Below, piece after piece: positions 2,809 through 40,535 of a stretch of DNA of 64,000 nucleotides (positions are counted from its first letter, which is position 1; the number at the start of each line of letters is the position of its first letter). This stretch comes from an uncultured Alphaproteobacteria bacterium. Lineage in GTDB: Bacteria > Pseudomonadota > Alphaproteobacteria > Rs-D84. The position numbers and the translations under genes were made by a program. A model generated the notes under the pieces. The model was not told the origin of the DNA, did not search any database, and was given only the letters and a program-made list of their open reading frames with translations. The stretch spans positions 7,193 to 71,192 of the forward strand of contig CALARG010000004.1 in assembly GCA_937888635.1 (NCBI GenBank), read 5' to 3'.

Positions 2809-3288
2809 ATGGAAGGAAGTTTTTCGTTGTTAAGTTTATTTACAGGCGATTGGATGACGGTGTTTGTGTCAATCGTGTTGGTGATTTTTAGTGTTATTTC
2901 ATGGACGGTGATTGTAGAGAAAATTCGTCTGTGGCGGATGCAAAAAAGAACCCCAATGAAAATGAAGCCGGATGAAAATATTGATGTCTTTATTCGTCCA
3001 TTTGATAAGAATCTGTGGTTCTTGTCTATGGTGGCATATATTTCGCCGTTTATTGGTTTGTTTGGAACAGTTTGGGGGGTTATGGATTCTTTTGCTGCGA
3101 TTGGTGTTAATCAATCGGTCAGTATTGGTGTGATTGCGCCTGGGTTGGCGGTTGCGTTGGGGACAACTGCGTTGGGGTTGATTGCGGCGATTCCAGCGGC
3201 AATTGCACATCAATATTTTACAAAAAAATCAGATGATTTGTATGAACGACTGGAATGTGCATGCAAAGAACATAAAAATCAAAAATAA
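2809..3288 (+). CDS. tolQ: Tol-Pal system protein TolQ (MotA/TolQ/ExbB proton channel, compact form)
   Basis: Three predicted TM segments with the conserved GLFGTVWGVMDSF and AL.TTALGLI.AIPA motifs. At 159 aa it is shorter than the usual ~230 aa because the cytoplasmic loop is short. Confidence 0.85.
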   Translation: MEGSFSLLSLFTGDWMTVFVSIVLVIFSVISWTVIVEKIRLWRMQKRTPMKMKPDENIDVFIRPFDKNLWFLSMVAYISPFIGLFGTVWGVMDSFAAIGVNQSVSIGVIAPGLAVALGTTALGLIAAIPAAIAHQYFTKKSDDLYERLECACKEHKNQK

Positions 3289-3299
3289 TGGTGTGATAT

Positions 3300-3698
3300 A
3301 TGTCCAGACTAAGACGCAGAAATACCGACAGTTCTATTCAATTAACGCCAATGATTGATGTTATGACGGTGCTGTTGGCGGTGTTTATGGTGACAACACC
3401 TATGATGACAACCGGGATTGATTTGGAATTGCCGCGTGCGGGCGCATCGGCAATGACAGGTAATGATCATGCAATTCAAATCAGTGTGGATTCGCATGGG
3501 CGATATTTCCTGTCAGAGATGGAATTGCCAAGGGATGAAATTGTAAAACGCGCAATTGCAATGCGTGGGGAAAATCCAAATTTAACCATTATGATAAGTG
3601 GTGATACGCATGCGGATTATGGCGCGGTAATGAGCATGATGGGTAAACTGAAAGATTCAGGTTTTCAAAAGGTTGGACTGCGTACGCAACCGGAATAA
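3300..3698 (+). CDS. tolR: Tol-Pal system protein TolR (ExbD/TolR family)
   Basis: IQLTPMIDVMTVLLAVFMVTTPMM TM helix followed by a periplasmic domain; 132 aa. Confidence 0.9.
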   Translation: MSRLRRRNTDSSIQLTPMIDVMTVLLAVFMVTTPMMTTGIDLELPRAGASAMTGNDHAIQISVDSHGRYFLSEMELPRDEIVKRAIAMRGENPNLTIMISGDTHADYGAVMSMMGKLKDSGFQKVGLRTQPE

Positions 3699-3703
3699 AA
3701 TAA

Positions 3704-4495
3704 ATGACAAAATTTAACCGATTTTCATCAGAAAATATCTTGATTTCTGTTGCAGGACACCTGGTTTTGGTGGCGGTTTTAATTACTTCTTTTGCAGTGG
3801 TGGTTAATCGTGCAAAAATGGTTGCGCCAGACAGAATTCAAATTATGGAAATTGACTTAAATGATGTTGTTGTGACAGGTGATGAAACAAAACTGTATAA
3901 TGTCGGTAATGTCGCAGAATCTAAGCCAGAAGAACCAACCCCGGTCCCAGATGCTAAGCCTGATGAAAAAGAAGAAATAACAGAGAATGAACCAGAAGAG
4001 GTAAAACAACCAACATTGGTTGAAGAACCTGAAAAGAAACAAGAAGAAGCGCAAGAAGAAAAGAAAGAAGATAAAAAGGAACAGGAAAAAAAACAAGAAT
4101 CAAAACCAGTTGAACCGGCCCCTGCCCCAAAAAAGCGCAAGGTTGTTCGTGTCAATCGCGAGGTTTTATCACTGGACAGAACATTGACGGTTTCTGTTGT
4201 TGATGCGTTGCGTGTGGCAATGACGCGTTGTTGGGTGATTGATTCTGCGCGTCCAGATATAACAGATATTCGTGCAGTTGCGCATTTGACAATGCGAAAA
4301 AATGGTACAGTGCGTGATGTTTGGTTTGAATCCCAGGCGCGTGAAGAAACAGACGCGGCGTTTGCGTATGTCTTGGAAACTATACGCGCGGCGATAAATC
4401 GGTGTCAGCCATTGCGGATGCTGCCGGAAAAAGAATTTTCAAAGTGGGAGAAAATCCAGTTAACCTTTTATCCAACCCAGGGTAAGGTTATGTAG
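3704..4495 (+). CDS. tolA: TolA-like protein (N-terminal TM anchor, Lys/Glu/Pro-rich linker, C-terminal TolA domain)
   Basis: N-terminal TM helix, a strongly charged KEE repeat linker, and position directly after tolQR. Confidence 0.7.
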   Translation: MTKFNRFSSENILISVAGHLVLVAVLITSFAVVVNRAKMVAPDRIQIMEIDLNDVVVTGDETKLYNVGNVAESKPEEPTPVPDAKPDEKEEITENEPEEVKQPTLVEEPEKKQEEAQEEKKEDKKEQEKKQESKPVEPAPAPKKRKVVRVNREVLSLDRTLTVSVVDALRVAMTRCWVIDSARPDITDIRAVAHLTMRKNGTVRDVWFESQAREETDAAFAYVLETIRAAINRCQPLRMLPEKEFSKWEKIQLTFYPTQGKVM

Positions 4496-5793: not shown

Positions 5794-8700
5794 ATGAATT
5801 TGAAATGCTTAATGTCCAGAATTTCGGCGTTTTTTGCGTCATTGTTGTTTATGGTTGTTTTTGCAACCGAATCGTTTGCGGCGATGTATTTGCCTGGACA
5901 GGTGATTGAAAAGTTTAACTATATCAGTAATGTGACCTTTACGGCGCAGTATACTGCGGTGGTGTGTGACGCAGGCACGTACCTGCCCGAAGGTGGCGAA
6001 GAATGTGTTGCGTGTCCGGCGGGGTATTATTGTTTAGGTGGTGGTGCGCCTGTTGTGTGTCCGGCGGGGCGCTATTGTTTGTCTGGCACACAAAGCGCAA
6101 ATGGTTCTGGGCTGGTCGCGGCTGGGTACTATTCAACGGGTGGTGCAAAAGTTCAAAATCCTCAATTTGCAGAAGACTGTGTTGGTGATGGTAATGCGTG
6201 TGGTTTAATTGATGCGGGATACTGGGGTGCGGCTGGCGCAACAACCAGTACTGGTTCTGGAAAGGTTGCGGCTGGATACTATAATCTGGGTGGTGGTACA
6301 TCGGCAACGCCAGAGGTTCGCGGAAAAGGTTGCGTAAATGTCAGCACCACGCAATGCGGTACGGTCGCACCAGGTTATTGGGGCGAAGCGGGCGCAACAA
6401 GATATGGTGGCTCTGGGGCTGTTGCGCCGGGATACTATTCAACAGGTGGTGCAACATCCAGAACACCAAGTGCCAGTGGCTGTGCCGGCAAGGTTGCGAT
6501 TATAGAAAATGGCAAGCTGATGGGTGCATCTGATGTTGATAACACGTGTGGACAGGTTCAGGCCGGATACTGGAACAATGCATGTGGTATTAATGCAACC
6601 GGTGGTGTTTGCAGTGCCGAATACCAAGGTGGTGTAATTGCAGCAGGTCATTGGGGAACAGTGGGCGCAACAGACAGTGCTGGGTCGGGACTTCTAACCC
6701 CAGGATATTATTCAACCGGTGGTGCAACAATTGAGTTCCCAGATCCAAATCAGTGTGTCGGTAATAATACATGCGGTGCGGTTGCAGCAGGATATTGGAA
6801 TAATGGTGGTGGTACATCTGCAAATGGAACATGTGTCAGTGGCAAGTCTTGTGGTCAGGTTAATGCGGGCTACTATTCAACTGGTGGTGGTACATCTGCA
6901 ACGCCAACAGCCGCAGGTAATGGATGTTTGGCTAATAAGTCTTGTGGTACATGTGCAAACTGGACATATTCTGGTGCGGGTGCGGCATCATGTACCGCCT
7001 GTCCAGCGGTAGAGTCTGGTTATGCAAAACTGGACAGCACAGGTACAGGATGGACGACATATCAGAAGTGTGTTGAAATTGCGACAGAATCACCAGAAAA
7101 CTGTGCATCTGGTAAATTGCAGAAGATCCCAACTGCATCTGGCGCAACGACATGGGCAACAGCAACAGTTAATGCGAATAATCCGTTGGTGGCAAAGCCG
7201 GGATATATCGTAAGTGGTACGGCATGTTTGTCAGAGGGCTATGTGGTGTCGTTTGAGACCAATGGTGGCACCGATGTAGCAGATATGACATGTACGGTTG
7301 AATCAGCGGATATTACCCTGCCAACACCAACCAAGACAGGTTATACATTTGGTGGATGGTATCAGAATTCTGCTTTGACAGGTAATGCGGTATCTGTGAT
7401 TGCCAAGGGAACATGTACATCTGCGTATAAACTGTATGCAAAATGGACGGTAATTGAACGCAAGATTACTTTGAATGCAAATGGTGGCACAATTGTTGGT
7501 GGCAGCAGTGCAACACCAAGTGCGTGTACGGTTGAAACGGCGGATATTACCCTGCCGAAACCAACCAAGACAGGTTATACATTTGGTGGATGGTATCAGA
7601 ATTCTGCTTTGACTGGTACTGCGGTGACCAAAATCGCTAAGGGTGCATGTTTGTCAGATTATACACTGTATGCCAAGTGGACGGTTAATACATATACTGT
7701 TACATTGGATGCGAATGGTGGTACAGGTGGTGATACATCTGTGACGGCGACATATGGTGAATTGTTACCAGCAATTAGCGCGTTGCCAAGCCAGGACGGT
7801 TATGACTTTAATGGTTATTGGTCTGCAAAGACAGGTGGTGTTCAGTATTATAATATGTCTGGTGCCGCAATTGAAAAATGGTCAACGGATGCAGCAGGTA
7901 CATTGTATGCACAATGGGCAGCAAAGGGGACCTGTGCGGCGGGTACATATTATAACGAAGAAACAGGTGCTGTGGAAACATGCCCAGCAGGCAGTTATTG
8001 TGCCGGTGGAACATGGGGCAATGATGGAAACAACTGTGCGATAGCAAAATGTCCAAGTGACTATCCAAACAGTGTTGCAGGCGCATCAGAGGAAGGACAG
8101 TGTTATAAGGCATCTCCAAAATGCTGGTGTTCGCATGATGAGGCAGAATGTGCTTCCAAGGGGGCGAATAGTTGTATGTATAATGATGTGCGGTTCCAGG
8201 GTGTGACCTATAAGTCAAATCCTGATATGTGTGTAGCTGCGCCTGGCAGTTCCGATAATACTTATTGTGAGATAATCAAGGTGTCTTGTAAGGCGGGGAC
8301 GTATTATACCCCAACTGGAGATATTGAAGATGGCAGTTGCGTATCATGCGCCACATTGGGGGATGGTTCTTTTAAGACTTCATATCCTTCGTTGGTAAAA
8401 TATGTTGCGGATTCTGATACAGGGTCAACGGCGTGCTTCAAATCGGTTGACTTGCCATGTACAGCGCCGGTTTGTCCTTTGAGTGGGACTGGGGTATGTG
8501 CCTATGATGCAAGTCACTCTATATTAGGTGGTGGATATTTGTTTTACGGTACAGATGAGCCATTGCCTGGTTCTGCAGCAGCGTATGTGTGCCCGAATGC
8601 ATCGTTCACATGTAATACAGGGTATGACAAGAATGAAAATGCGGATATAGATCCAACAGATGGATCGGCGTCTGTGCCAGAAGAACTGTGTACGCCGCAT

Positions 8701-11700
8701 GTGTATACATTTACATTGGATCCAAATGGTGGTGAAACGGCAGTTGGTAAGATATACGAAAAGTATTCTGTAGGTTGGTATAGTAATGAAGCGGCAACCG
8801 CTAAGATTACCAAGGTTGCGGTTCCGGTGCGTCCAGGCTATACATTCGCAGGATATTATACCAAGATGACTGCATTGGAAGGGGCTGTGCCTGTAATAGG
8901 TGTTGCGGGTAATATATTGGATGAACCAGATGTGGCTGCAGATGCTGTGCTGTATGCTTGGTGGCAGGTTAATACTTACACAGTTAAGTATAATGCGGCC
9001 GGTGCATCGGGAACGATGGACAGTGTGGTTCATACCTGTGATGAACCGTTGAATTTGACACCGAATGCGTTTACATCGGCAACAAATGATCAGCAATTCA
9101 TGGGATGGGCGACAGAGCCGAATGCGGCAACGCCGGAATACACAGATGGTCAAAAGGTTGTTAATTTGACGCTGGTCAATAATGCGGTGGTTACATTGTA
9201 CCCTGTGTGGAAGGCATGTACAGCATGTGCAGCGGGTAAAGGTGCAACATGTTCACTGACGGCGCCGGTTGGGGTTTGTACATATACAACTGCGTGTGCG
9301 GCTAATTATGAAAATCTGCAAAACGCGGGCAAGTATAATCCAACATGTTCTGCAGTTAAATATGCTGTAAACATGGAAACAAACGGTGGTGAAATCAGCA
9401 GTGACTATACAATGGTGTCACAGTGTACGGTTGAATCTGGTGTGATTGTATTGCCAACTGCGGCGCAGATTTCGCGTGAAGACTATCGCTTTGAGGGTTG
9501 GTATGATAATGTTGCGACCACAGGCAGTGCGATATCATCAATCCCAGCGGGTGGATGTACGACAAATAAGACATTGTATGCAAAATGGGTGATAAATGTT
9601 GAGATGTGTCAGCCAGGCATGTACTATAATGGTACTTCGTTTGTGGCATGTCCAAAGGGATACTATTGCCCAGGTGAAGGTAAAGTGACAATGGGTGTTG
9701 CAGGATGCCGTACCGTATGTCCAAGTGGATATGATGATGGTGGTACAGGGTACAGTGATGAATCACAATGTCAGATTTCTGTGCCACAGGGTTCTTACCT
9801 GGCCACAGCCAAGGGAACCAACACGACTGTTTGCCCTGCAGGGAAGTATACATCGGGTGCGGTTTTGGTTTCGTATGGTGATACCAGCAGTTGCGCATCT
9901 TGCGAGGCAGGCAATTATTGCAGCAATGGTACAAAGCGCAGTTGTGCGACCGAAACAGACGGCGTGTTTGCAAGCAGTGTGGCAAATAGTGACAATATTA
10001 ATGATTGCTATACTGTGACGGTGGCGGGTAAATACATTGCGGACAATGCTGTTAAGACCTGTGTTGTGCCTTATTACTGTCCGGGTGATATAAAGGTATC
10101 GTATGGCAATTCTGGTGGTAATTTATCGTGCGCAGATTTGTCAGATGATGTGACATGGCAAAGTGGCGTGACAGCCAGTGGGGCAAGTACACCTGATAAG
10201 TGCTATGTAGTGGTTGCGGACGGTAAATACTGGAATGGTGATGCGTTTGCAACATGTAAGGCAGGAACATACAAGACAGAACATAATGTCTATTATGGTC
10301 AGAAAAGTAGTTGTGCGACCTGCCCTGCGGGATATACTTCTGAAGCGGGTGCATCAGAATGTTATCTGACCACGACAGCGGGCAAGTATGTTGCGACCGC
10401 TGGCAAGGGTGAAGTTGAATGTAAGGCAGGCGATTTCTGCCCAGGTGGTGTCAAGGTTATGGTCAGCGGTGTTGGTGGAAACACAGCGTGTAAGACACTG
10501 GCAGGTGGTAAATACAGTATGTCTGCAGCCGGTACAAAGAGTGCGGATATGTGCTATACAGAAAGTTGCGCGTTGGCAACCAATGCAACAACGATGAGTG
10601 GTAAAGATTACTATGGTGCGTCTGTTGCGGATACATGTGTGGCGACATTATGTAAAGCAGGCTTTACAGTTGTTGGTGGTGCATGTTCAGTATGTCCAGC
10701 GAACAATGTATGTAATCCAGCCAAAGATGCGGGTAAACCATATACTTGTTCTGAATTGACAGGTGGGGTTTATACAAAGTCTGCGGCACAGACTGGTACA
10801 GTTGATAATTGCTATCTGACCACGACGGCGGGCAAGTATGTTGCGACTGCGGGTCAAGGCGAAGTTGAATGTCTGGCAGGTGGATACTGTGCGGGTGGTG
10901 TTGATGTAAAACGCACAGGCACAGGTGGCCGTGAAGCGTGCCCAGCGGGTTATGCAATGTCTGGGACGGGGGCGTCTGAGATAAATCAGTGCTATGCGAA
11001 CTGTGCTATGTATTCACATGCAACACAGATGGCGGGTAAAGACTTCTATGGAACGGGTGTTGATACCTGTGAAGCAGTAGAGTGTGAGACAGGATTTGTC
11101 TTGGCAAATGGTACATGTGGCAGCTGTCCGGCCAATAGCGTGTGCGATCCAAACTATGATGGTGGCAAACCGCATACATGTTCTGAATTGACCAATGGTA
11201 AGTATACCTTGTCGTTAGAGAACAGTTCATCAATTGATGCGTGTTATACGATAACGACACCGGGTAAGTATGTTGCGGTTGCAGGTCAAGGCGAAGTGGC
11301 ATGTAAGGTTGGTGATTACTGTTTGGGTGGCGTAAAGGTTATGTATACGGCCACAGGTGGTAATTCAGCGTGTTCAGCATTTGGTGCGGGTTATTCATCA
11401 GATGTTGGTGCAAGTGTAGAAACCCAGTGCTATCAGCGTTGTGCGTTGGCAGCAAATGCAACCCAGATGTCAGGTCGTGATTACTATGGAACGGATGCGA
11501 CAGATACATGTGCAGTTGCATCTTGTGTGTCAGGCTATACGGTTGCAGGTGGTGTATGTTCGGTATGCCCAGCGGATCATGTGTGCGACCCTGCCAAGGA
11601 TAATGGCGCACCACATACATGTTCTGAATTGACAGACGGTGTTTATACAAAGTCTGCAATGCAGAATGGGTCGGTTGATAATTGCTATCTGATTACAACG

Positions 11701-12921
11701 GCGGGTAAGTATGTTGCGACCGCAGGTCAAGGCGAAGTTGACTGTCTGGCGGGTGGATATTGCGCCGGTGGAGCCAAGATAATGCGTGTCGGTAAAGGTG
11801 GACGCGAGGTATGTCCAAACGGCTATGCGTTATCTGATTCAGGGGCAGCAAGTGCACAGCAGTGCTATACAAGTTGCGCAATGGCAACCAATGCCCAAGA
11901 AATGTTCGGTCGCGACTATTATGCAAATGGTGTGGATACATGTGAAATAACACTGTGTCGCCCGGGGTATACTTTGAACGCTGGTGTGTGCGCAGTATGT
12001 CCGGCAAATAATATCTGTACACCAGATATTGAACGCGGTAAACCACAACTGTGTTCAGATCTGACAAAGGGAACACACCAGTTCGCATCGGCAGGCTCTG
12101 AAAAGATTTCTGATTGCTATCTGAAATGTGAAGCCTATGATATTACCTATGGAACGGCGATTCCTGTGTCGGGTACTGAAAATTATCCGCTGCAGTGCAG
12201 ATTTGACGGTTTGTCTGTCACCAAGAATCCGTGCGACATAGTTAACGGAACATGTGTAGAAAGATCATGTAACTATAACTATGAAATGATTGGTGGTAAA
12301 TGTCAGGCATGTGCACGCGAAAATGCATTGTCATACAAGAAAGATGGTGGCAACTGTGTTGTAGAGTCGTGTGTCAGCGGATTCCATCCAAATGGCCAGG
12401 CCTGCGAAGTTGATACCGTAGAATGTTCTGTTCCAAATGCGGTTGCGGCGACACGCGTTTGGGATGCATCAAAGCAAGCGTTTGGTGAATGTGTAATCAC
12501 AGAATGCGAGGAAGGATATCATCTGGGGGCAAATACATGTCAGGCAGATGAACAGGTCTGTGAATTAGAACATGGTATTGGTATACGCGAATGGAATCAC
12601 AAGAAAAATACATGGGGCGATTGTATCGCAACCAAGTGTGATCCAGGCTATACAAATGACCGCAGCCAGACCAATGAACTGTGGAAACAGTGCGGACGAT
12701 GCAACAATATGTACAGTGCGGGTGGCGAGTTGGCGGCCAGCAGCTATGTTGATGGTTGTGAGATTGCGACTTGTATGTACGAAGGTGAGTTGTACACACT
12801 GGAAAACAATGAATGTGTTCTGATATGCGATACCTATTCAGATGAGACGGGATCGCGCAGATGGAATGCATCACGCAAGAAGTGTGAACGCACATGTGAA
12901 CCAGGATATATGTCTTGGTAA
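5794..12921 (+). CDS. Giant secreted Cys-rich repeat protein (2375 aa) with mixed repeat modules: ephrin-receptor-like CxxCPxGxYC Cys repeats, Gly/Tyr/Trp-rich (AGYW/GYYSTGG) repeats, at least six Listeria-Bacteroides (Flg_new) repeats, four tandem ~150-aa Cys-rich modules and EGF-like Cys-rich C-terminal modules
   Basis: RBS GAGAGGG is followed by a signal peptide MNLKCLMSRISAFFASLLFMVVFATESFAA. CVACPAGYYCLGG repeats are present. Flg_new-type repeats include VSFETNGGTDVADMTCTVESADITLPTPTKTGYTFGGWYQNSALTG...YKLYAKWT, found twice almost identically at nt 7237-7690. Repeated CYLTTTAGKYVATAGQGEVECLAGGYCAGG modules lie at roughly nt 10320-12000. A rho-independent terminator follows the gene. Confidence 0.8.
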   Translation: MNLKCLMSRISAFFASLLFMVVFATESFAAMYLPGQVIEKFNYISNVTFTAQYTAVVCDAGTYLPEGGEECVACPAGYYCLGGGAPVVCPAGRYCLSGTQSANGSGLVAAGYYSTGGAKVQNPQFAEDCVGDGNACGLIDAGYWGAAGATTSTGSGKVAAGYYNLGGGTSATPEVRGKGCVNVSTTQCGTVAPGYWGEAGATRYGGSGAVAPGYYSTGGATSRTPSASGCAGKVAIIENGKLMGASDVDNTCGQVQAGYWNNACGINATGGVCSAEYQGGVIAAGHWGTVGATDSAGSGLLTPGYYSTGGATIEFPDPNQCVGNNTCGAVAAGYWNNGGGTSANGTCVSGKSCGQVNAGYYSTGGGTSATPTAAGNGCLANKSCGTCANWTYSGAGAASCTACPAVESGYAKLDSTGTGWTTYQKCVEIATESPENCASGKLQKIPTASGATTWATATVNANNPLVAKPGYIVSGTACLSEGYVVSFETNGGTDVADMTCTVESADITLPTPTKTGYTFGGWYQNSALTGNAVSVIAKGTCTSAYKLYAKWTVIERKITLNANGGTIVGGSSATPSACTVETADITLPKPTKTGYTFGGWYQNSALTGTAVTKIAKGACLSDYTLYAKWTVNTYTVTLDANGGTGGDTSVTATYGELLPAISALPSQDGYDFNGYWSAKTGGVQYYNMSGAAIEKWSTDAAGTLYAQWAAKGTCAAGTYYNEETGAVETCPAGSYCAGGTWGNDGNNCAIAKCPSDYPNSVAGASEEGQCYKASPKCWCSHDEAECASKGANSCMYNDVRFQGVTYKSNPDMCVAAPGSSDNTYCEIIKVSCKAGTYYTPTGDIEDGSCVSCATLGDGSFKTSYPSLVKYVADSDTGSTACFKSVDLPCTAPVCPLSGTGVCAYDASHSILGGGYLFYGTDEPLPGSAAAYVCPNASFTCNTGYDKNENADIDPTDGSASVPEELCTPHVYTFTLDPNGGETAVGKIYEKYSVGWYSNEAATAKITKVAVPVRPGYTFAGYYTKMTALEGAVPVIGVAGNILDEPDVAADAVLYAWWQVNTYTVKYNAAGASGTMDSVVHTCDEPLNLTPNAFTSATNDQQFMGWATEPNAATPEYTDGQKVVNLTLVNNAVVTLYPVWKACTACAAGKGATCSLTAPVGVCTYTTACAANYENLQNAGKYNPTCSAVKYAVNMETNGGEISSDYTMVSQCTVESGVIVLPTAAQISREDYRFEGWYDNVATTGSAISSIPAGGCTTNKTLYAKWVINVEMCQPGMYYNGTSFVACPKGYYCPGEGKVTMGVAGCRTVCPSGYDDGGTGYSDESQCQISVPQGSYLATAKGTNTTVCPAGKYTSGAVLVSYGDTSSCASCEAGNYCSNGTKRSCATETDGVFASSVANSDNINDCYTVTVAGKYIADNAVKTCVVPYYCPGDIKVSYGNSGGNLSCADLSDDVTWQSGVTASGASTPDKCYVVVADGKYWNGDAFATCKAGTYKTEHNVYYGQKSSCATCPAGYTSEAGASECYLTTTAGKYVATAGKGEVECKAGDFCPGGVKVMVSGVGGNTACKTLAGGKYSMSAAGTKSADMCYTESCALATNATTMSGKDYYGASVADTCVATLCKAGFTVVGGACSVCPANNVCNPAKDAGKPYTCSELTGGVYTKSAAQTGTVDNCYLTTTAGKYVATAGQGEVECLAGGYCAGGVDVKRTGTGGREACPAGYAMSGTGASEINQCYANCAMYSHATQMAGKDFYGTGVDTCEAVECETGFVLANGTCGSCPANSVCDPNYDGGKPHTCSELTNGKYTLSLENSSSIDACYTITTPGKYVAVAGQGEVACKVGDYCLGGVKVMYTATGGNSACSAFGAGYSSDVGASVETQCYQRCALAANATQMSGRDYYGTDATDTCAVASCVSGYTVAGGVCSVCPADHVCDPAKDNGAPHTCSELTDGVYTKSAMQNGSVDNCYLITTAGKYVATAGQGEVDCLAGGYCAGGAKIMRVGKGGREVCPNGYALSDSGAASAQQCYTSCAMATNAQEMFGRDYYANGVDTCEITLCRPGYTLNAGVCAVCPANNICTPDIERGKPQLCSDLTKGTHQFASAGSEKISDCYLKCEAYDITYGTAIPVSGTENYPLQCRFDGLSVTKNPCDIVNGTCVERSCNYNYEMIGGKCQACARENALSYKKDGGNCVVESCVSGFHPNGQACEVDTVECSVPNAVAATRVWDASKQAFGECVITECEEGYHLGANTCQADEQVCELEHGIGIREWNHKKNTWGDCIATKCDPGYTNDRSQTNELWKQCGRCNNMYSAGGELAASSYVDGCEIATCMYEGELYTLENNECVLICDTYSDETGSRRWNASRKKCERTCEPGYMSW

Positions 12922-27387: not shown

Positions 27388-27411
27388 GTCCCCGTAAAGG
27401 GGATTTTTTAG
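27388..27411 (+). terminator. Rho-independent terminator after gpmI
   Basis: tccccgtaaaggggat hairpin plus a T-run. Confidence 0.7.
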
Positions 27412-27545
27412 TTGTAAGTTGTTAGTGTAAGTGATTAGTGTCGGTTTTTATTTTCTTAGCCCCTGTTCCCGCGATGGCCGGAATGACAAATATGATGAAT
27501 CGTTTACTGCGATAAACTTTTATTTGTTTAAGAAAACGGAAATTT
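27410..27545. repeat. Intergenic palindromic repeat locus (modules A, C, D)
   Basis: tagttgtaagttgttagtgtaagtgattagtgtcgg (module A), ccctgttcccgcgatggccggaatgacaaa (module C) and gataaacttttatttg (module D), matching the copies at 24981-25330 and 36716-37060. Confidence 0.75.
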
Positions 27546-27660
27546 ATCGGCGAAAAAATACTGTCAAAAAAATTATTGCTGTGTTGGGGGAATTTTTTAC
27601 TTGTGCAAAATTGCTGGTTTTTCTATGATAAAGACAAAAGAGAAAAAGAAAGTGGGAAGA

Positions 27661-30600
27661 ATGTCTAGATTTCTGCGGTTTTACGCATTTTTATCTGTTT
27701 TGTTTTTTACCGGTAATTTGATGGCGGCGGGGTATACCTGCAGCACAACGGCGAGATATACTTCGTGTAAAGAAGGCTATTATATGTCCGATTGTGGCAG
27801 TACAGCCGCGAATTGGACTGGGCAGACAGTGGACGCAACCAATGGTAACACTTGTATTGCGTGCCCTGACGGATATGCGTGTGAAGGTGACAATGTGTGT
27901 CCTGTGCGGAATGGTATTAACTGTGCCGCGGGGACATATATCAAGGCGAATACAACAACATGTACCGCATGTCCGGCTGGGAATTATTGCCCAGGCATAA
28001 CCACAGATTCTGTGACCAGTACTTCATCAGATCGTGGTATAACACAATGTCCGGCGGGTTCCTATTGTCCCGCGGGCAGTAGCAATCCAAAGTCATGTCC
28101 AACAAATTATGGAAACAGTGCAGCCGGTTCAGATGCGGCATCAGATTGCTATGCCACTTGTGGGGTTGGTGCAGTGGTGACTGCGCCAATGACACCGTGC
28201 GTTACACCAGCGGGGGCATGGTATTCCCCATCGGCACATAATGTTTACTATGGCAAAATTTCACCAATTGGGTATTGTCAGTATGGGTCAGATTCCCGCA
28301 ATGGGGTAACCAGTTTGCATGATCAGGGGGCCGACTGTTTGGTGACAGTGCCGGCGGGGTACAGTTCCGCGGTCACAACCAGCACTGCACGTTATATCCG
28401 AATCAGTTCTGAAACAGGCGTATTCCCGTTGGCAGAGGTTCAGGCATATAATAATTCTTTGGGCCAGCTGAGTTTGGCATTGGGCAGCAGTGTGACAAAT
28501 GGTGTGAATGCATTGGATGGTTCTTTGGCGACACAGGCGGGCGTAACCACAGAATCGGCTGTTGGGGCGTATGCGATATTTGATTTGGGCAGTGCCAAGA
28601 CGATTACGAATATTAAGTTTGCATTGGGTAATGTGACCAGTGGATATAATATTGTAATTGCAATATCGTCTGATAAATCAAACTGGACAACTGTATTTAA
28701 TCAGACCGTTTTTGGTGTTTCGGTATTGCCGGGCGTGTTGCAAAATGTACCGCTTAACACCCGGACAAATACCAAGTGTACAGCCGGCACATATCATGGT
28801 TCAACGACGGTTGCTGCAACAAATGGTGTGACCTGTTCGGAGTGTCCGGCAGCGGTATGTAATGGAGAAACAAATTGTGCCAGTGGTTTTTCAACCCACA
28901 GAAATACATATCCTGCTAATTACCATTCTGATGATAATTTGAAATTGGTTAAGGCATGGTTCGCAACATCGTCAAATACAGGAAATACATCCATAGAGGA
29001 ATGTAAGCTGTCTTATACGTATACCAACAATCGTGGTACATTTAATCAGGATTCAGTTCGGTATCAATCCAGTACGGGACGCTATGATGGTGTGGGTGGT
29101 TCTGTTTACTATACTGTTTTGAATCCTGGTTATTATGGTTCTGGCAAAATGCCAGATGGGTACTGTGATACTGATACAAATACTCGTCGGCATTATTATC
29201 AGGATGCAGTATTATGTCCTGCGGGGAAATACTGTTCAGGATATACACAGATGCCATTGTGTTCTTCTGGAACTTATAATGATACAATGGGAATTGATGG
29301 TTTGTTATCTGGGGGATACTTTTCAACTGGTGGTGCGACAAAAGCTGCACCGACATCGGCAGATTGCGTTGGGGTTGTTGGAGCCGATATCTGGAGTTCA
29401 TCTGTTTCCCCGGTAAAAAATGTCTGTGGTCAACTCTTGCCTGGATATTATTCCATAGAGGGTGCTATCTTGCCTGCGCCGGGTGAATTGGGTGCAAAAA
29501 ATACCGCGGCATTGGGCTTTAGTATTGATTATTTGAATCAGGGGCTGGATTCTGTTCGGGCGGGATGCCTTGGAAGTGACAAATGCGGTATGGTTGCTGC
29601 GGGGTATTTTTCATCGGGCGCTGCAACTTATCCAAGGCCATCGTCTACAGGTTGTGTGAGTGGGACATGTGGCATTTGTCCGGCAGGTGCATATTCTGCC
29701 GCAGGCGCGACCAGTTGTACAGCATGCCCTGCCCTGGGTGGATCAAATTGGACCTGGAATATGTCACAGGGTGCCGGATCATTGTCTGCCTGTAAGCGTA
29801 AGGGTGTGCCCGATGGGTGCAGCGCCGGTACGGTGACGGATACTGCAACATCGGCAACAACATGGGGAAATCGTGTGCTGAACGAATGGGCGGCGCCTGG
29901 GAATACGCAAATCTTTGCACAACGGGGATATCAGATAGATGTGACCAATCTAAAATGTACAATATGCCCAAATGGACATTATAGTGGGGGATATACGAGC
30001 AGTTGCGCCCCAGTTAATGCTGGATATTATGCAACAGGCGCTGCAACTTCACCAGCCCCTTCGTCATCAGAAGATTGTGTGACTGGAACATGTGGCAAAG
30101 TTCAAAAGAATTGTTATGGCGCATCAGGGGCGACATCAGCATGCCCAAACAAATGTTCTGATTTGGCATATGGTACATACCCACAGTCGGATGAGGGCGC
30201 GGATTCACCGAATAAATGTTTCACATCGGGCAGCGCGATGGGCGGTGGATATATTGCAACAGCCGGTGGCCCACGCCGTGATTGTCCGTTGGGAACATAT
30301 AAGGAATATCATACTGTGTATTATGGTCAAACATCTCGGTGTACAGTCTGTCCAAGTGGGACCACCACAGCGACACAAGGCGCTCATAATACATCCAGCG
30401 CGTCATGCAGTGCTGAATGTACAAATGCTGATGGTGTGTATGAATGGCAAATGCCAGAATTGTCTTCGGATGGAGGAACAGTGTTAAAATTGTGTCAGGC
30501 GGCCAGTTGCAAGGCAGGAAACGCTTTGGGAACAACAAGCCAATGTAACGAATGTCCGGCGGGACATTATCAACCCGTTGATGGTTATTCCGACAGCATA

Positions 30601-33600
30601 TGTAGCATAACACCCGATGGATATTACAACAACGAGCCCGGCGCAACAGAGCCACTGCCGTGTCCCGCAGGGCAATGGTCGGTGGCGCAATCTAAATCAT
30701 GTACGACCTTGCCTGCTGGATACTGGAATAATGGTTGTGGTACTGATAACAAGGGTTCTGTACGTGAAGGTTATCTGGGTGGCGAGATTGCTGCGGGTTA
30801 TTGGGGCGAAGCTGGTGCGACAACTGCAACGGGTTCTGGTATGGTTAATGCAGGTTACTGGAACGATGGTTGTGGTATAAATGCAACAGGTGGCGTTTGC
30901 GACACAACCCATAAGGGTGGCCAGGTAAATGCCGGATACTATAACCTGGGTGGTGGTACATCGCCAACACCAGAGGTTCGCGGAAAAGGTTGCGCAAATG
31001 TCAGCACCACGCAATGTGGTACGGTTGCACCAGGCTATTGGGGGGCTGCGGGTGCAACACAATATGGGGGCTCTGGGGCCGTTGCGCCGGGATATTTTTC
31101 AACAGGTGGTGCAACATCCAGAACACCAAGTGCAAGTGATTGCGCCGGCAAGGTTGCGATTATAGAAAATGGCAAGCTGATGGGTGCATCTGATGTTAAT
31201 AACACATGTGGACAGGTTCAGGCCGGATACTGGAACAATGCATGTGGTATTAATGCAACTGGTGGTGTGTGCAGCACTAGTTACCAAGGTGGTATAATCG
31301 CAGCTGGATATTGGGGAACGGTGGGCGCAACGGACAGTGTTGGCTCAGGGCGCATTGCCCCAGGATATTATTCAACCGGTGGTGCAACAATTGAGTATCC
31401 AGATCCAAATCAGTGCGTTGGTAATAATACATGTGGTGCAATTGCGGCAGGATATTGGAATAATGGTGGTGGTACACTGGCCGCGCCAACGGCCCCAGGC
31501 AATGGGTGCCACAGTGATAAATCGTGTGGCACGGTTAACGGCGGATACTATTCAACTGGTGGTGGTACATCCGCAACGCCAACAGCCGCAAGTAATGGAT
31601 GTTTGGCTAATAAGTCTTGTGGTAAATTAAGTGCGATATACTATTCAAATGGTGGCAGCACATCTGATGGTGCGACATGTGTTAGTGGTAAAACATGCGG
31701 TACATGTAATGCAAATTATCGTGCAAATACCACAACAGGTAAGACATCCGCAAGCCAGTGTCAGGCATCTTGTGCGGCAGGCACGCGTGTTGCAACAGTG
31801 AATGCAGCATGTACATCGCCGGCGGGCGGATGGTTTAGTGCGGCCCATCTGGTAAATTATGGTCAGATATCACCGGTAAATTACTGTATGTCTGGTTATA
31901 CATCAGCCAGCACATCGGCCAGTGGTCACGATGCAAAATCTGATTGTGTCCAGACGGTTGCAGGTGGTAAATATGTGCCGTCGTCAAAGATTAATGCACG
32001 GTATATTAAGATTACATCTGATGGCAGTGTTAGTGTAAGCGGTTCTACAAATCCAAGTACACACTTGCTAGAAATGCAGGCGTTTGCATCCAGTGATGGT
32101 ACAGGCACAAATCTGCTGTCAGGTAAAGGAGCGGTTGCAGGTGATAAGATGTCTGCGGTGACAAATGGCAACTGGACACGTGGCGATGGGTATTCCTATG
32201 GCGAAGGGTCACCAATGATATTGGATTTAGGTTCTGTTCAGGCGTTGGGCAGTTTGAAGTTTGCGATGTATACTGATGGTCGTGAATATCAGAATGTTGC
32301 AATTGCGGTGTCTGAAGATAACACGACATATACAACAGTGTTTACAGCGAATAAACTGTTAACCCAGAATACAACCACCCCAACAGGCGAACTGGTTGTA
32401 TTAAGTGCAGCACCAAAATCATGTGCGGCCGGTACATCTAAGGCATCAGGTACGGTTGCGTTGGGCAACACAACGACATGCGGTACATGTGCAAACTGGA
32501 CATATTCTGGTGCGGGTGCGGCATCATGTACCGCCTGTCCAGCGGTAGAGTCTGGTTATGCAAAACTGGACAGCACAGGTACAGGATGGACGACATATCA
32601 GAAGTGTGTTGAAATTGCGACTGCATCGCCAGCAAACTGTAAGTCTGGTAAATTGCAGAAGATTCCAACTGCATCTGGTGCAACGACATGGGCAACAGCA
32701 ACAGTTAATGCGAATAATCCGTTGAATGCAAATCCGGGATATATCGTAAGTGGCACAATGTGCTCACAATGTACTGGTGCGACCTACTCTGCTGGTGGCA
32801 GTGCAACATCGTGTTCGGCCTGTGATCCAAATTATCAGGCGGATACCACTGCAGGTAAATCGGCTGCAACTCAGTGCCAGATTTCATGTGCGCCTGGTAC
32901 AGCAGTTGTAGAAAAGAACAAGGCATGTGCAGTGCTGTCAGGTGGTAAGTATAAGACGGGCACGGCATTGGTAAAATATGGTTCGTTATCGCCAACCGCA
33001 ACTGATAAAACATCAGGATGGGCGGTGGATACAGTGTATAGTTGCCCAAGCAGCTATGGCATTAGTGGCACAGCGGCGGCCAATCATGATGCACGCACGG
33101 ATTGCACTATTAGCTGTCCGGCGGGAACCCAGGTTGCAAGTACGAACGCAACATGCACAACACCAAGTGGCACAACATGGTACACATCTGGACACAGTGT
33201 TGCGGCGGGCTCAACATCTGGAACAAATGTAAAAAGCTGTAATTCTGGTTATACGACGCCGAATACAACAACACAATCTGATCACGACGCGGCAGCGGAT
33301 TGTAAGATTAGTTGTGATGCTGGATACTATGTTCCAAATGCAGGTCAAGGATGTAAGATTTGTGCGCCGGGTAAGTATTGTGAGGCTGTGTCAGATATTG
33401 ATCAGACAAAGATATCGGCTGTGACCGGCGATGTGACGGCGGGATACTATTCCAGTGCGGGCGGTACATCGGCAACGGGTACATGTTTGTCTGGCAATTC
33501 TTGTGGCAGTTGTTCAACCGGAACAGGTTCTAATGGGCGTCTGTTGTATTCAAATGCTGGGGCGGCATCATGTTCGGAATGTCCAGCGGCAACAGGCACA

Positions 33601-36600
33601 TTGGCCAGCCGTGTGACGGGGTATAGTGGATGGTGGTCAAATAATATCCATAACAAAATTGGTGGGTGCTATGCGAATTTCTCTGACAGTGATGATACTG
33701 CAACATACCGAACAATGTGTTATTACAACGCAACAGATGGCACATATGGTGGCGAAAACAGCAGTTGTCAGTTCTATGCCCCAACGGCATGCAGTGGCGG
33801 ATACTATTCAGTTATTGATAAAACATCTGAATGGAGCACGTATGGATATGCGTACTGTAAGGGTGTGGATTGCATGAAGGGTAAGGTTTGTGGTCTGACC
33901 GATGCTGGTTCATACAGTCCAGATGGCGCAACAACACAGACCAAGTGTGTAATGGGTTCGTATACCGACACAACAGGTCAAAGCGCATGTAAGGCATGTG
34001 CAGGTGGCAAGACAAACAGCGCAGATGGTGCAACATCGTGTACAGCAACCTGCTCTAATGCGACGGGTGTGACAGGTTGGGAAACACCGGTTTGGGACAA
34101 CACAACCAACAAGATGACCAATTTGTGCACGGTTAAGGCAACAGCGGGCTGTTCGGCAAATTATTACAAGAACAGCAATGCGTGCACTGCATGCCCAAGT
34201 GCGACCTATCCATATAGTGTGGCAGGCGCAACAGCACAAACACAGTGCTATGCAAATGTGACATTGAACAAGAATGGATTTAGTGGTTCTATTGCGGCTG
34301 GTTTGGGCACAGGGTGCAAGGTTGTATCTGCTGCGACAGGTACAAATAATGCGACACTGCAGGTGTATTACAATACAGAATGTACATTGCCAACAATCAG
34401 CGGATTTACCCAGACGGGTTATACTGCGGCCAGCGGTTGGGCATCTGTGAATACGATTGGTGCAAGTGCAGTGACCAAGTTGCCGGCATCAACATCAAAA
34501 CCTGCGGCGACATATTATGCGCGCAAGACAACATGTGGTGCAGATTACTATAAGAAAGATGCAACGACATGCAGCACATGTGCAAGTGGTACGGATGGCA
34601 ACTATACCAAGTCTGCAGCAGGCACGGCCAGTGATGTGAATGTATGTTATCTGAATACAACGGCCAAGAACTTTGTTAAGACACCGGGCGCAGGTCAAAC
34701 AACATGTGAGAAAGGCAACTATTGCCCAGGTTCGGTCAAGGTGTATTATGGCGGAACAGCATCTGATACACACCCAACAACCGGTGGCAGTACACAATGT
34801 CCGGCAAACAGCTATTGCGTGGCGGGTGTAAGCGAACCAGTTGCGTGTTCAACACTGGGTGGTGGTTTGTATAAGAACAGTACAGCAGGTGCAAGCGCGG
34901 CAGAAGATTGCAACTTTACAACAACGGCGGGTAAGTACATGGTTGCGAATACCGATACTGCACAGACAACATGCCCAGCCAAACAGTACTGCACAGCAGA
35001 AACGCTGAACTGGCCAAATGTCAGTGTGCTGAACGACGGCGGTTGGAATGACTGTCCAGATGCAGCAACGCATAAACGTACATCGTTCCCTGCGGATTAC
35101 TATAGCCCGACGTTTGCAAGCACCAGTGTGACAAGTTCTACAGGTAAAGGATCTATAAGTGGGTGCCAGGTATTAAACTGGTTGGATTCAGCAACGCATG
35201 GTGGATTATACGAATATGTGAACTATAATCCAAACTCTGGCAAGTATGATACAACATACACATACAGATGGCATAGTGCAAAGCCTGGTTATTATCTGAC
35301 TGATAAAAATGGTTGTGGAGGATATGCATATTATCAGACCATCAAAGAATGCGAGCCAGGTTCGTACTGTCCGGGTAAAAACAAGGTTTCATGTAATAAA
35401 GATAACCAGGCAACGGTTCATACGGATACATTTGGTATATATTCGTGTTCGGCGGATACAGATGGCAACTATGAACTGTCATCTGGTGGGGTGGCGGCGA
35501 ACAGCATTAACAAATGCTATCTTGTGACCGATGTTGGTGATTGGGTGGCCACAGCGAACGCAGCCCAGACAGATTGTCAGGCAGATGGTTGGTGTCCTGG
35601 TAATGCGACCGTGTACTATGGCAGTACCGGTGGACGCACAGCATGTGTGGCACCATATGGATTGGCCGCAGCGGGGTCAGATGATGCGAATGATTGCTAT
35701 CTGAAGACCACGGCGGGACAGTATGTTGAGACCGCGGGCGCAGGTCAGACAGTATGCCCGGCAGGATACTGGTGCGTTGGTAAAGTCACCATATATAAGG
35801 GCGGTTCGGTCACCGGTCGCAGCACAAAGGGTGGCAGTGAACAATGCCCCGCCGGTTATCGTGATGGCACAACAGGATACAGTTTACAGTCACAGTGCAC
35901 AATGAATGTTCTGGGCGGTAAGTATGTTAAAGTTGTCAACGAAAGCAGTGCCAGTGGTACATGCGATTTAGGAACATATAAACCTGCACACCCGGTCACA
36001 TATGGCAAGACATCCAGCTGTATTCCTTGTCCGAATGCAACATATGCAGCACAGGAAGGCATGAGCGCATGTGAAGCATGTCCGACGGCAACAAAGTATG
36101 CGGATAAGGTTGTGTCGTATGGATCAAACAAAAAAGCGCGTTCAGGGTGTTATGCCAGATTTGAAGATACAGTAAAAAACGGCGAAACAACGTATTTTAG
36201 TTGTTATCTGCGGTCTGGTGATGATTATGGAACACTGACCAGTGGTAATAATTGTTGGACGCATGGGGCGCGCACAAAGTGTGACGCAGGGTATTATTCA
36301 CCGGTTGTACCAAACGCCCAATATGATGAAATGTGGTACATGAATTATTCAACAGTTGTTAATAATTTGTGTATGCCAGTAGAATCTGGATACTGGTCGG
36401 GGGCGGACAGCCTGACCCGTACGGCGTGCGAAACAGGCCTGGTGACATGTGGTGCGGGGTTGTGCGCGAACGAGGCCGGCGACTGTGGACGCAAGTTGCA
36501 TGCAGGTGATAATGTAATCTATCTGCGCAGCCAAAAGCGTACGACACCATCGCTGAATGTGAAAATTGGTGATAAGATGTTCTATGGAAACCTGGGGGAT

Positions 36601-36669: not shown

Positions 36670-36693
36670 TTCGGCAAATCAAGGAAGGAAAAA

Positions 36694-36718
36694 TCCCGCC
36701 CATGTGGCGGGGTTTTTA
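36694..36718 (+). terminator. Rho-independent terminator after giant gene 2
   Basis: cccgcccatgtggcggg hairpin plus a T-run, preceded by the aatcaaggaaggaaaaa motif shared with the gene 1 3' flank. Confidence 0.75.
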
Positions 36719-37060
36719 GTGGTTAGTGTTGGTCCCTGCGGGGCAATGGATACCCACCTGTGTGGGTATGACGGACTTATTTTTACTGTGATAAATAAAA
36801 GTTTATATTAGTGGTTAGTGTAAGTTGTAAGTGGTTAGTGGTGGAAATAAATTAAGAATCTTCGTCATTCCCGCGAATGCGGGAATCCACTGCGTCGCAG
36901 ACATTTTCTTACTTGTCCCTGCGGGGCAATGGATACCCACCTGCGTGGGTATGACGGAGGGTGCGCGTTGCGCACGGTTTGGGGACCCTGTTCCCGCCTT
37001 CGCGGGAATGACAAAGGGGGGGCGTGGTTTGTGCCCTGCCCGTGTTTAGGGATAAATTTA
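36716..37060. repeat. Intergenic palindromic repeat locus (modules A, B x2, C x2, D)
   Basis: Module B occurs twice: tccctgcggggcaatggatacccacctgtgtgggtatgacgga at 36729-36771 and tccctgcggggcaatggatacccacctgcgtgggtatgacgga at 36907-36949. Its stem is atacccac/gtgggtat, versus ataccggc/gccggtat at 25039-25058, which is a compensatory change. Module C hairpins are attcccgcgaatgcgggaat and ttcccgccttcgcgggaa. Module D is gataaataaaagtttat, and the GT-rich module A is also present. Confidence 0.8.
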
Positions 37061-39599: not shown

Positions 39600-40535
39600 T
39601 CACCTTTGATATGCGATTTGCTTTAGGTCTTGGGATAATTGTTCCAGACGCTGAACAATTAAATTCCACGATGTTTTTGGGGCAGTAAATGTTTGTTGCG
39701 CCATATTGTCATAGTCTGATTCCAGGGCGTATAAAACCGGATCCGACGGAATCAAAATAGCATCGCGTGGTGTTATATCTGTTCCCAATCGCTTGGTTGT
39801 ATATTTTTCCTGGTACTGTGCAACATCTGACAGCATGTGCGCGGTTTTGTCTAAATCAACGTATCCTGCCAGTCTGGCAACATCAAAATAGTGGCGCGAA
39901 TAAAATGCGTCTGTGTGTGGGCGTGCCGATATAGCGTTTGAATGCAAGGCAAAAACCTTGTCCCAGAAGGTTTGTTCATAGGCAACGGTTGGGATATGCC
40001 CAAATCGGGTGCCCCGTAATGCATACGGCATTACAGAATGAAAAGACAGCGCAGACGATGAGTATTTGCGCGGAATTATTTCAATGTGAATTTCTTCGGG
40101 CCTGTCACAAAATGCAGAATTATAGAATATATGAATTGTTGGTGATGACAGCCATTGTTCTTTGTTGCTTCTTATACAGTGTTCACGGTCTGTTTGTATT
40201 TGGAAATTATTGTCTGTGGCAATCAGGGCCGATATTCGGGGGGCAACAGTTTCAAAAATAAATGTTTTAAACCGTTTGCGAAATTTTTTTAACTGATTTC
40301 GCGATGGGGTGTCGGGAATATCGCAAAATACAGTGCATGCCAAATCCAGGTCCTGGCTGACGCGTGGGCTGAACGCATATGATTTTGTAATAGAGCCACC
40401 ACCTGCAAACACAAAATTTTCCGCGAAGAATTTATCTTGGAATAATTTGACCAAGATTGCACATTCCAGGAAATCTTTTTCCGCCATGGCAGGGTTTTTG
40501 GCGCCTGCAAAAATATCGTACCGTTTTTCTATCAT
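39600..40535 (-). CDS. Pol-beta-superfamily nucleotidyltransferase, AbiEii/DUF1814 (MenT-like) toxin family
   Basis: The N-terminal motif AEKDFLECAILVKLFQDK...FVFAGGGSITKSYAFSPRVSQDLDLA matches the AbiEii/DUF1814 signature (KD..ILk.l...FvFKGGTaL.k.y...RfSeDiDf; hG[GS]x9-13DhD). 311 aa. No AbiEi-type antitoxin ORF is adjacent. Confidence 0.65.
   Translation of the reverse strand: MIEKRYDIFAGAKNPAMAEKDFLECAILVKLFQDKFFAENFVFAGGGSITKSYAFSPRVSQDLDLACTVFCDIPDTPSRNQLKKFRKRFKTFIFETVAPRISALIATDNNFQIQTDREHCIRSNKEQWLSSPTIHIFYNSAFCDRPEEIHIEIIPRKYSSSALSFHSVMPYALRGTRFGHIPTVAYEQTFWDKVFALHSNAISARPHTDAFYSRHYFDVARLAGYVDLDKTAHMLSDVAQYQEKYTTKRLGTDITPRDAILIPSDPVLYALESDYDNMAQQTFTAPKTSWNLIVQRLEQLSQDLKQIAYQR

Follow-up and report, generated by a model that had tools for sequence, protein, structure and literature searches.

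Probable recurrent gene conversion between two giant modular protein genes of Candidatus Enterousia, an uncultured gut alphaproteobacterium

The stretch of DNA considered here, 64,000 nt of contig CALARG010000004.1 (hereafter, the window, to which all positions refer unless another contig is named), is a segment of the bacterial chromosome of Candidatus Enterousia. This uncultured gut lineage belongs to the order Rs-D84 of Alphaproteobacteria and has genomes mostly below 1 Mb; its dependence on a partner in the animal gut is presumed (PMC12306168). The window harbors two giant genes, which are co-oriented and 24.7 kb apart. According to the list of open reading frames (ORFs), gene 1 (5794–12921, + strand) codes for a cysteine-rich protein of 2375 aa, and gene 2 (27601–36669, + strand) is represented by an ORF of 3022 aa beginning with TTG, with the likely start at 27625 or 27661. 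Two blocks of similar DNA are shared by these genes, lying side by side in gene 1 and apart in gene 2. Most likely, this pattern results from ectopic gene conversion that has recurred between the two intact paralogs, along with recombination between strains.

Both genes encode giant, cysteine-rich, modular proteins that are probably secreted and may be exposed on the cell surface; their hydrophobic leaders resembling signal peptides were recognized by inspecting the translations. Apart from its N-terminal leader, the product of gene 1 comprises a Gly-Tyr repeat array, a domain termed here B2, four Listeria–Bacteroides (Flg_new) repeats (Pfam, E = 7e-49), and repeats of ~290 aa at its C-terminus. 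The product of gene 2 combines the leader with two discoidin domains, Gly-Tyr repeat arrays, B2-type domains, ephrin-receptor-like repeats (Pfam F5_F8_type_C and Ephrin_rec_like), and a conserved C-terminal end (...YSVVNDNQ). The internal repeats of these giant proteins become visible only in chunked searches, since self-BLASTP of the whole protein gives the identity match alone. In gene 1, they include the Flg_new units at 7291–7491 and 7525–7725 (80.6% identity) and the C-terminal repeats (10360–11830). A 49-nt motif is common to gene 1 (10805–10853 and 11678–11726) and gene 2 (35690–35738; 83.7%). A protein of 3594 aa from another species, P0021, possesses a gene-2-like N-terminus together with a gene-1-like C-terminus (...CERSCNPGFISW); since it joins both end types, recombination of the ends must have taken place elsewhere in the family.

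Block 1 consists of arrayed units that follow the pattern (A/P)GY(Y/W)...GG(A/G)T...C...CG, and block 2 encodes B2, a domain of 96 aa hallmarked by five invariant cysteines. The B2 domain was encountered in 25 of the 50 family proteins examined, in up to eleven or more copies per protein, and is repeated in related giant proteins, e.g., P0017 and P0022. The structure of B2 (6940–7227 of the window) was predicted confidently with AlphaFold2, with a predicted local distance difference test score (pLDDT) of 91.4, and showed no neighbour among PDB folds. Neither of the blocks matched sequences from Pfam, NCBIfam, or PDB. An exhaustive profile-free search among 1.84 billion representative proteins retrieved only 48 clusters of relatives of the shared cassette, nearly all of them giant proteins. 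A word-indexed protein search with the cassette returned four weak matches only, and scanning of a metagenome contig collection with the peptide patterns of the cassette returned no match.

In gene 1, block 1 (6271–6942, + strand) spans 224 codons of a GYY/GYW Gly-Tyr repeat array; in gene 2 (30931–31627, + strand, delimited by BLASTN), it spans 229 codons up to 31617 plus a junction overlap of 10 nt. Block 2, corresponding to the B2 domain, is situated at 6943–7220 (+ strand) in gene 1 and, according to BLASTN, at 32479–32756 (+ strand) in gene 2. Self-BLASTN of the window aligned 6271–6952 with 30931–31627 at 86.8% identity over 698 columns (75 mismatches, 4 gap openings, E = 0) and 6943–7220 with 32479–32756 at 94.6% over 278 ungapped columns (E ~1e-123). 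In global alignments, 588 of 687 positions (85.6%) were identical in block 1 and 263 of 278 (94.6%) in block 2. The similarity of block 1 varies along its length: it comprises 89.4% in 6271–6800, 50.7% in an indel patch (6801–6860), and 92.7% in 6861–6942, also by global alignment. The longest exact match found by an exact-match scan is a 140-nt run on the + strand, 6946–7085, identical to 32482–32621.

The blocks abut in gene 1, where the two matches overlap by 10 nt (6943–6952) at the junction motif TG(T/C)GGTA; in gene 2, they are 851 nt apart (31628–32478). Outside the blocks, the two genes are unalignable, with 35–55% identity in 60-nt windows; in the same windows, identity steps sharply to ~90% near 6268 and drops back near 7222. 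Any further nucleotide match found by BLASTN between the genes is at most 106 nt long (74.5% identity), and self-BLASTN revealed no further copies of either block in the window. A previous interpretation made from the letters alone (hereafter, the sequence-only reading) had claimed two matches, adjacent in gene 1, split in gene 2 by ~860 bp coding for a discoidin-like domain, and flanked by much more diverged sequence. Its layout and coordinates have held: BLASTN of gene 1 against gene 2 returned the two matches with identity above that of the remaining gene, the separating DNA measures 851 nt, and it carries a match to F5/8 type C, described below. The identities claimed, 90–95% for block 1 and ~96% for block 2, turned out to be too high.

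Comparison with related genomes was possible at the level of both species and strains. A scan of one genome per species detected a syntenic locus of another Candidatus Enterousia species (L001; ~82% nucleotide identity) and weaker relatives in two further genomes of the Enterousia lineage. Exact look-ups of the DnaK, gene 1, and ExbD products of the window found nothing on record. The DNA of other strains was reached via the proteins related to the cassette and via small neighbour proteins identical between strains (a helix-turn-helix protein, ExbB, and the product of an 87-aa ORF). The window strain is designated below as W; strain S2 is represented by loci L007, L008, and L028 on one 93-kb scaffold, and S4 by loci L029 (gene 1) and L010 (gene 2). 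Over 22.9 kb, S2 and the window share 98.8% identity, and the two are collinear through both giant genes. The gene-1 orthologues reside between the DUF2817 gene and secA in L001, L007, and L029.

The insert between the blocks of gene 2 (31628–32478, + strand; 851 nt) codes for a Gly-Tyr repeat, a cysteine-rich linker, and the second discoidin domain. The whole gene 2 protein matched F5/8 type C (PF00754) in two stretches at 41.4 bits (cut-off 28.2; E = 1.9e-10), and the insert-bearing segment alone scored 25.9 bits (E = 1.2e-5), just under the same cut-off. The insert is present in gene 2 of S2, S4, and L009 at 96–98% identity. In relatives from other species, both arrangements are found: a discoidin domain followed 14–15 residues later by B2 (P0016 and P0019) and a Gly-Tyr repeat leading directly to B2 (P0015 and P0026). 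Since both layouts are old, the identity of the blocks does not go back to a recent insertion into gene 2; it represents a separate homogenisation of two modules long standing in different contexts.

For block 2, the alignment comprised three sequences, namely the window copies from gene 1 (g1_W) and gene 2 (g2_W) and the L001 orthologue of gene 1 (g1_L001); synonymous divergence (dS) was estimated according to Nei–Gojobori. Both window copies are joined against the orthologue at 39 sites, the orthologues are joined at 8, and 5 sites are private to g1_W; the excess of paralog grouping (39 vs 8) has a binomial probability of 5.5e-6. The dS between the paralogs is 0.13, and each of the paralogs is separated from the orthologue by 0.92 and 0.74, respectively. 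The baseline for the two species is 0.73 in ruvB, 0.76 in the DUF2817 gene, 1.2 in secA, and 0.76–1.0 in the rest of gene 1. Fisher's test (2e-7) supports the paucity of synonymous differences between the block 2 paralogs. Since the dS of the paralogs is far below that of the orthologues, block 2 was homogenised in the window lineage well after this lineage had diverged from the L001 species. Within the first 140 nt of block 2, there are 22 consecutive variable sites at which the L001 orthologue differs and the paralogs are identical; a difference-free run of 22 sites was reached in 73 of 100000 permutations. Block 2 of gene 2 differs from that of S2 gene 2 at 2 sites, from gene 1 at 15–18, and from the L001 orthologue at 45–47. 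With another Enterousia, fecal_MAG_67, as the outgroup, the site counts on the direction of donation in block 2 were near even.

In block 1, the strains are most informative. W and S2 differ at 504 sites over 35.8 kb (1.4 per 100 nt, with a rate of 1.5% in gene 1), and the densest clusters of these differences all belong to the repeat modules of both giant genes: 13 substitutions per 100 nt at 6206, 17 at 6406, 15 at 30509, and 27 at 30727, with smaller clusters at 10851, 11724, 30911, 31100, and 35654. Of the 21 differences in block 1 of gene 1, 17 are concentrated in a tract of 88 nt (6411–6498, + strand), where W carries gene-2-type sequence; such clustering of 17 substitutions was reached in 0 of 20000 permutations. 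At these sites, gene 1 of W coincides with gene 2 of S2 in 14 cases and with its own gene 2 in 13, and gene 1 of S2 coincides with the L001 orthologue in 16; over 6411–6498, S2 and the L001 species differ at a single site. The stretch 6438–6540 of the window matches gene 2 of S2 with 2 mismatches in 103 nt (98%); over this region, gene 2 of S2 is less similar to gene 2 of W (93.4%) and to gene 1 of S2 itself (89.3%). Block 1 of gene 2 is 97.5% identical to that of S2 gene 2.

A patch map was built from 71 diagnostic sites at which the gene-1 type (S2, L001) and the gene-2 type (W, S2) differ. Gene-2-type sequence at ~6411–6498 was recorded in gene 1 of W, S3, L019, and L025; the patch of W is closest to gene 2 of S2, and that of S3 is closest to gene 2 of W. 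Since the details of the patch differ between W and S3, at least two separate events are needed. In S4, gene 1 is of the gene-2 type at 6357–6400 and 6609–6660, and gene 2 is of the gene-1 type over 6357–6498. Reciprocal-looking patches are seen in S4 (6357–6400) and W (6474–6480). Four-gamete combinations occur in 1678 of the 5778 pairs of biallelic informative sites. Overall, tracts copied between the genes exist, the type of their donor is identifiable, and the exchange proceeded in both directions, continuing after the split of the species and after that of the strains. The suggestion of the sequence-only reading that the blocks record recent gene conversion or segmental exchange rather than uniform divergence is thereby borne out by the block edges, dS, the site patterns, and the strain-specific patches.

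The densest difference between W and S2 in the 35.8 kb compared lies at 30500–30850 (15 and 27 substitutions per 100 nt together with 57 nt of indels), where gene 2 carries the GYW repeat units that immediately precede block 1; neither W nor S2 yielded a donor for these differences. Several other clusters of W–S2 substitutions (100-nt windows from 10851, 11724, and 35654) are located near or within the 49-nt motifs and repeats mentioned above.

According to the explanation we favour, the blocks would be homologous modules of two intact, co-oriented paralogs. Stretches of ~40–140 nt would be repeatedly copied or swapped between the genes by homologous recombination, keeping the modules similar, and recombination between strains would then spread the patches. 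The sharp edges of the blocks are expected under this mechanism, because the neighbouring modules are non-homologous and the tracts cannot extend past the blocks; in gene 2, the discoidin module sits between both homologous blocks. The process likely depends on the general recombination machinery. Recombination genes present in the window, according to Pfam, are ruvB, recN, and a UvrD/AddA-like helicase gene; recA was not seen within the 64 kb. The two genes form direct repeats flanking secA and dnaE, and a simple crossover between them would delete these essential genes; hence, non-crossover outcomes should dominate. The benefit of the exchange may consist in variation of a binding or antigenic surface.

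Several observations sit uneasily with this explanation. The last 250 nt of block 1 (6690–6942) are free of exchanged sites in all the copies examined. Taken as a whole, block 1 is not closer between the paralogs of one genome than between the orthologues (dS 0.36 between the paralogs vs only 0.185 between the orthologues of W and L001, with the baseline of 0.73–1.2); such closeness of the paralogs is confined to its patches. The values of 0.36 and 0.185 imply that the copies of block 1 all share an ancestor younger than the species split. No other part of gene 1 is more than 90% identical between both species, and the synonymous divergence of block 1 between them is four to six times below that of the surroundings. 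Conversion within a genome cannot produce such a likeness between species. The simplest reading of the sequences suggests a transfer of the block-1 cassette between Enterousia species (6271–6942 vs 10241–10912 of L001). Furthermore, single patches of gene 1 could come by allelic recombination from gene 1 of another strain, although each type of patch still needs at least one transfer between the genes. Finally, the exchange and its probable mechanism are deduced from assembled sequence rather than seen directly.

Variant alleles of both genes were found in other assemblies. In L019 (11297–13092; a SPAdes node with a coverage of 7) and L025 (8919–9960; from Logan), the two blocks of gene 1 are separated by a discoidin insert, which shares 86% and 93% identity, respectively, with the insert in gene 2 of the window. 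L019 is in frame through the insert into the gene-1 sequence, and the contig of L025 ends inside the insert; the two share a private A-to-G substitution at the window-equivalent position 6938 (LANK to LANR). These alleles could be wrong assembly walks through the shared ends; if real, they would mean that the blocks can act as homology arms carrying the discoidin module between the genes.

Hybrid genes occur in L005 (7070–11923; 1617 aa) and L022 (7070–12415; 1781 aa). They consist of the 5' part of gene 1 and the 3' part of gene 2, with a crossover in block 2 near 7100–7130, and most of block 1 is gone (position 6312 of the window is joined to 6849). The hybrids are located between the DUF2817 gene and dnaK, so that 21 kb with secA and dnaE are omitted, and iPGM as well. 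L005 (with a k141 contig name) and L022 (with a metaSPAdes-style scaffold name) come from different samples and different assemblers; they display the same junctions and 4 differing sites in block 2. In these samples, there are also short contigs (L032 and L036) in which the 3' end of gene 1 adjoins secA. The hybrids may represent either a recurrent wrong assembly walk or a lineage that is genuinely rearranged and has its essential genes at another place. The existence of the second hybrid, with the same junctions and 4 substitutions in another sample and assembler, makes the chimeric reading of L005 less secure.

The alleles of gene 2 in other strains encode products of 2803–3041 aa and differ by whole modules, with flanks 96–97% identical. 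In L013 and L016 (the same species, different samples and assemblers; the corresponding region of the window is 27426–37017), gene 2 is wholly missing, and iPGM is directly followed by dnaK. Their junction is identical and lies in a TTAGTG-rich spacer, which follows terminator-like hairpins both after iPGM (27410–27444) and after gene 2 (36713–36732). Short palindromic intergenic elements also cluster around gene 2 (25011, 27466, 36732, 36864, 36915, and 36991): GTCCCTGCGGGGCAATGGAT is present three times and TTCCCGC-N4-GCGGGAATGAC three times, and shuffled sequence gives 0. There is also a short allele of gene 1, encoding 1097 aa (L026, 5494–8787; L027), with the same leader and Flg_new repeats and neither block 1 nor block 2; L026 and L013, the latter lacking gene 2, stem from one sample.

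Since the data are metagenomic, near-identical stretches might in principle be generated by a collapsed or chimeric assembly. The longest exact repeat, 140 nt, is indeed just one base under k = 141 appearing in the names of related contigs, and hybrid contigs exist. In fecal_MAG_67, contigs L002 and L003 start with the same 141 nt (1–141 in each), corresponding to the start of B2, and then diverge; this shared stretch is a graph branch at the B2 module, reflecting a repeat of at least 141 nt or strain variants. Nevertheless, such an origin is highly improbable: the copies are not identical (15 differences in block 2 and ~84 in block 1), and each gene keeps its own flanks. S2 (metaSPAdes-style names) and S4 (k141 names), assembled by different programs, exhibit the same layout with substitutions of their own, and the gene-2-type tract in gene 1 recurs in four other assemblies, S3, L019, and L025 among them. 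Nor would a walk at k = 141 be expected to create the patches, because these are shorter than k and reside between exact runs of at most 54 nt. The layout of the window is not an artefact, and the shared repeat is at the limit of short-read resolution. Sharply bounded blocks of high identity could also result from one recent segmental duplication into the other gene, followed by ordinary divergence with no further exchange. This scenario seems quite improbable given that the blocks differ in age (paralog dS of 0.36 in block 1 vs 0.13 in block 2), both layouts are old (P0016 and P0019 vs P0015), and the patches differ, in both directions, between strains 97–99% identical. Selective conservation of the peptide or the DNA without any exchange finds some accord with the low ratio of nonsynonymous to synonymous divergence (0.05–0.29) and with the likeness of block 1 between species, where the proportion of synonymous differences (pS) is 0.16 vs ~0.5 in the rest of gene 1. 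Still, selection at the protein level does not hold synonymous sites, and constraint can neither make paralogs of the same genome closer than orthologues, as in block 2, nor yield strain-specific patches matching the other gene, so we regard it as very unlikely. A diversity-generating retroelement, with one block as the template repeat and the other as the variable repeat, might come to mind in view of two similar repeats in genes resembling those of surface proteins, the sole point in its favour; it is hardly conceivable here. The gene 1 bases at the mismatches are T24/G21/C20/A19 in block 1 and A5/G4/T3/C3 in block 2, with no adenine bias, and Pfam found no reverse-transcriptase domain in the window ORFs scanned. 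With this flat mismatch spectrum and no reverse transcriptase gene, a retroelement of this kind was rejected for the window.

A programmed system would imply dedicated cassette exchange with high-frequency switching within a clone, possibly silent donors, and blocks that shuttle the discoidin module. It accords with an exchange that is recurrent, bidirectional, and sometimes reciprocal-looking, with gene 2 alleles differing by whole modules on 96–97% identical flanks, with the discoidin insert in gene 1 of L019 and L025, and with the hybrids L005 and L022 crossing over in block 2. However, both genes are full-length ORFs with leaders of their own, there are neither truncated donors nor extra copies in the 64-kb window, and Pfam scans of the window ORFs revealed no recombinase or reverse transcriptase gene nearby; the insert-bearing and hybrid contigs, in turn, could be wrong walks through the shared repeat. 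Nothing specific speaks for programmed variation, which we consider rather unlikely. Hence, of the cassette-based variation raised by the sequence-only reading, ordinary recombination between two intact genes stands, and a dedicated machinery or a silent-cassette system in the window does not. A broader proposal would see in the giant genes, possibly with further family members, a cassette-exchange system varying a host- or partner-binding surface, with the blocks as homology arms moving the sugar-binding discoidin module, hybrids formed by crossover in block 2, and block-1 cassettes passing between Enterousia species; as a whole, it is speculative and doubtful. Recurrent gene conversion between the two intact paralogs along with recombination between strains remains the explanation to be preferred.

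Short segmental conversion yielding mosaic genes of surface proteins is typical of silent-cassette systems such as pilE/pilS of Neisseria, vlsE of Borrelia, mgpB/MgPar of Mycoplasma genitalium, and msp2 of Anaplasma. In these systems, a single expression site is accompanied by an archive of truncated donors that are not expressed; in M. genitalium, the mgpB/MgPar exchange can be reciprocal. The Enterousia pair is different because both partners are complete genes, and no silent archive was found beside it in the 64-kb window. A closer parallel is offered by babA/babB/babC of Helicobacter pylori, in which intrachromosomal recombination and gene conversion lead to mosaic and chimeric alleles and to gene loss or replacement at the locus (PMC4271554). 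As in Enterousia, intact paralogs of the surface-protein type (in bab, outer-membrane adhesins) located at separate loci exchange segments (PMC4271554). At the same time, the bab genes are homologous at their 5' and 3' ends with a variable middle, whereas the Enterousia pair shares two internal modules and has unrelated ends; the bab exchange was observed in experiments and among serial isolates, whereas that in Enterousia is deduced from metagenome assemblies; and the two protein families are unrelated. In Porphyromonas gingivalis, the kgp, rgpA, and hagA genes share cassettes of adhesin domains in a combinatorial order varying between strains, and their repeats break short-read assemblies (PMC5266723). 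The sharing of domain cassettes with a strain-variable order is common to both systems (PMC5266723), but the P. gingivalis domains (cleaved adhesin, DUF2436) and the C-terminal signal of type IX secretion are unrelated to the Gly-Tyr array and B2. Also, the repeat identity in P. gingivalis defeats automated assembly, and the Enterousia blocks are 86–95% identical. A duplicated PE_PGRS pair of Mycobacterium is likewise reported to consist of repetitive surface-associated genes reshaped by gene conversion and rearrangement (PMC1762029); unlike the Enterousia pair, these genes are adjacent, glycine-rich, GC-rich, and members of an unrelated family. Overall, the process itself is already known, being a common route by which host-associated bacteria diversify surface proteins; new are the organism, the undescribed protein family, and the degree of plasticity at the strain level.

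The gene order in the window is ruvB, tolQ/tolR-like genes, the DUF2817 gene, gene 1, secA, dnaE, mraW, unknown ORFs, iPGM, gene 2, and dnaK, with recN and a UvrD-like helicase gene further on. The + strand of the whole window has a strong excess of G over C (16383 vs 11841), and nearly all long ORFs are on this strand. Downstream of dnaK, a gene for a nucleotidyltransferase toxin of the AbiEii type (39600–40535, − strand; Pfam E = 7e-22) is kept in other strains. The tolQ/tolR-like genes together with the next ORF of 263 aa (2809–4495) show a low synonymous divergence from the L001 species (pS of 0.20–0.38 vs ~0.5 elsewhere). Rfam and tRNA scans of the window were empty.

The two giant genes fill 16 kb of a genome smaller than 1 Mb, and both are the fastest-changing part of the 36-kb stretch compared between strains. 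Two of their building units, the B2 domain and the Gly-Tyr array, are in no family library searched (Pfam and NCBIfam). Short-read assemblies can be broken or misled by a shared cassette of this length; hence, gene models of this family in metagenome-derived genomes need care. The mutual exchange, the differences in whole modules, and the loss of gene 2 mark these genes as a likely interface of Candidatus Enterousia with its host or partner and a likely source of the individuality of its strains.

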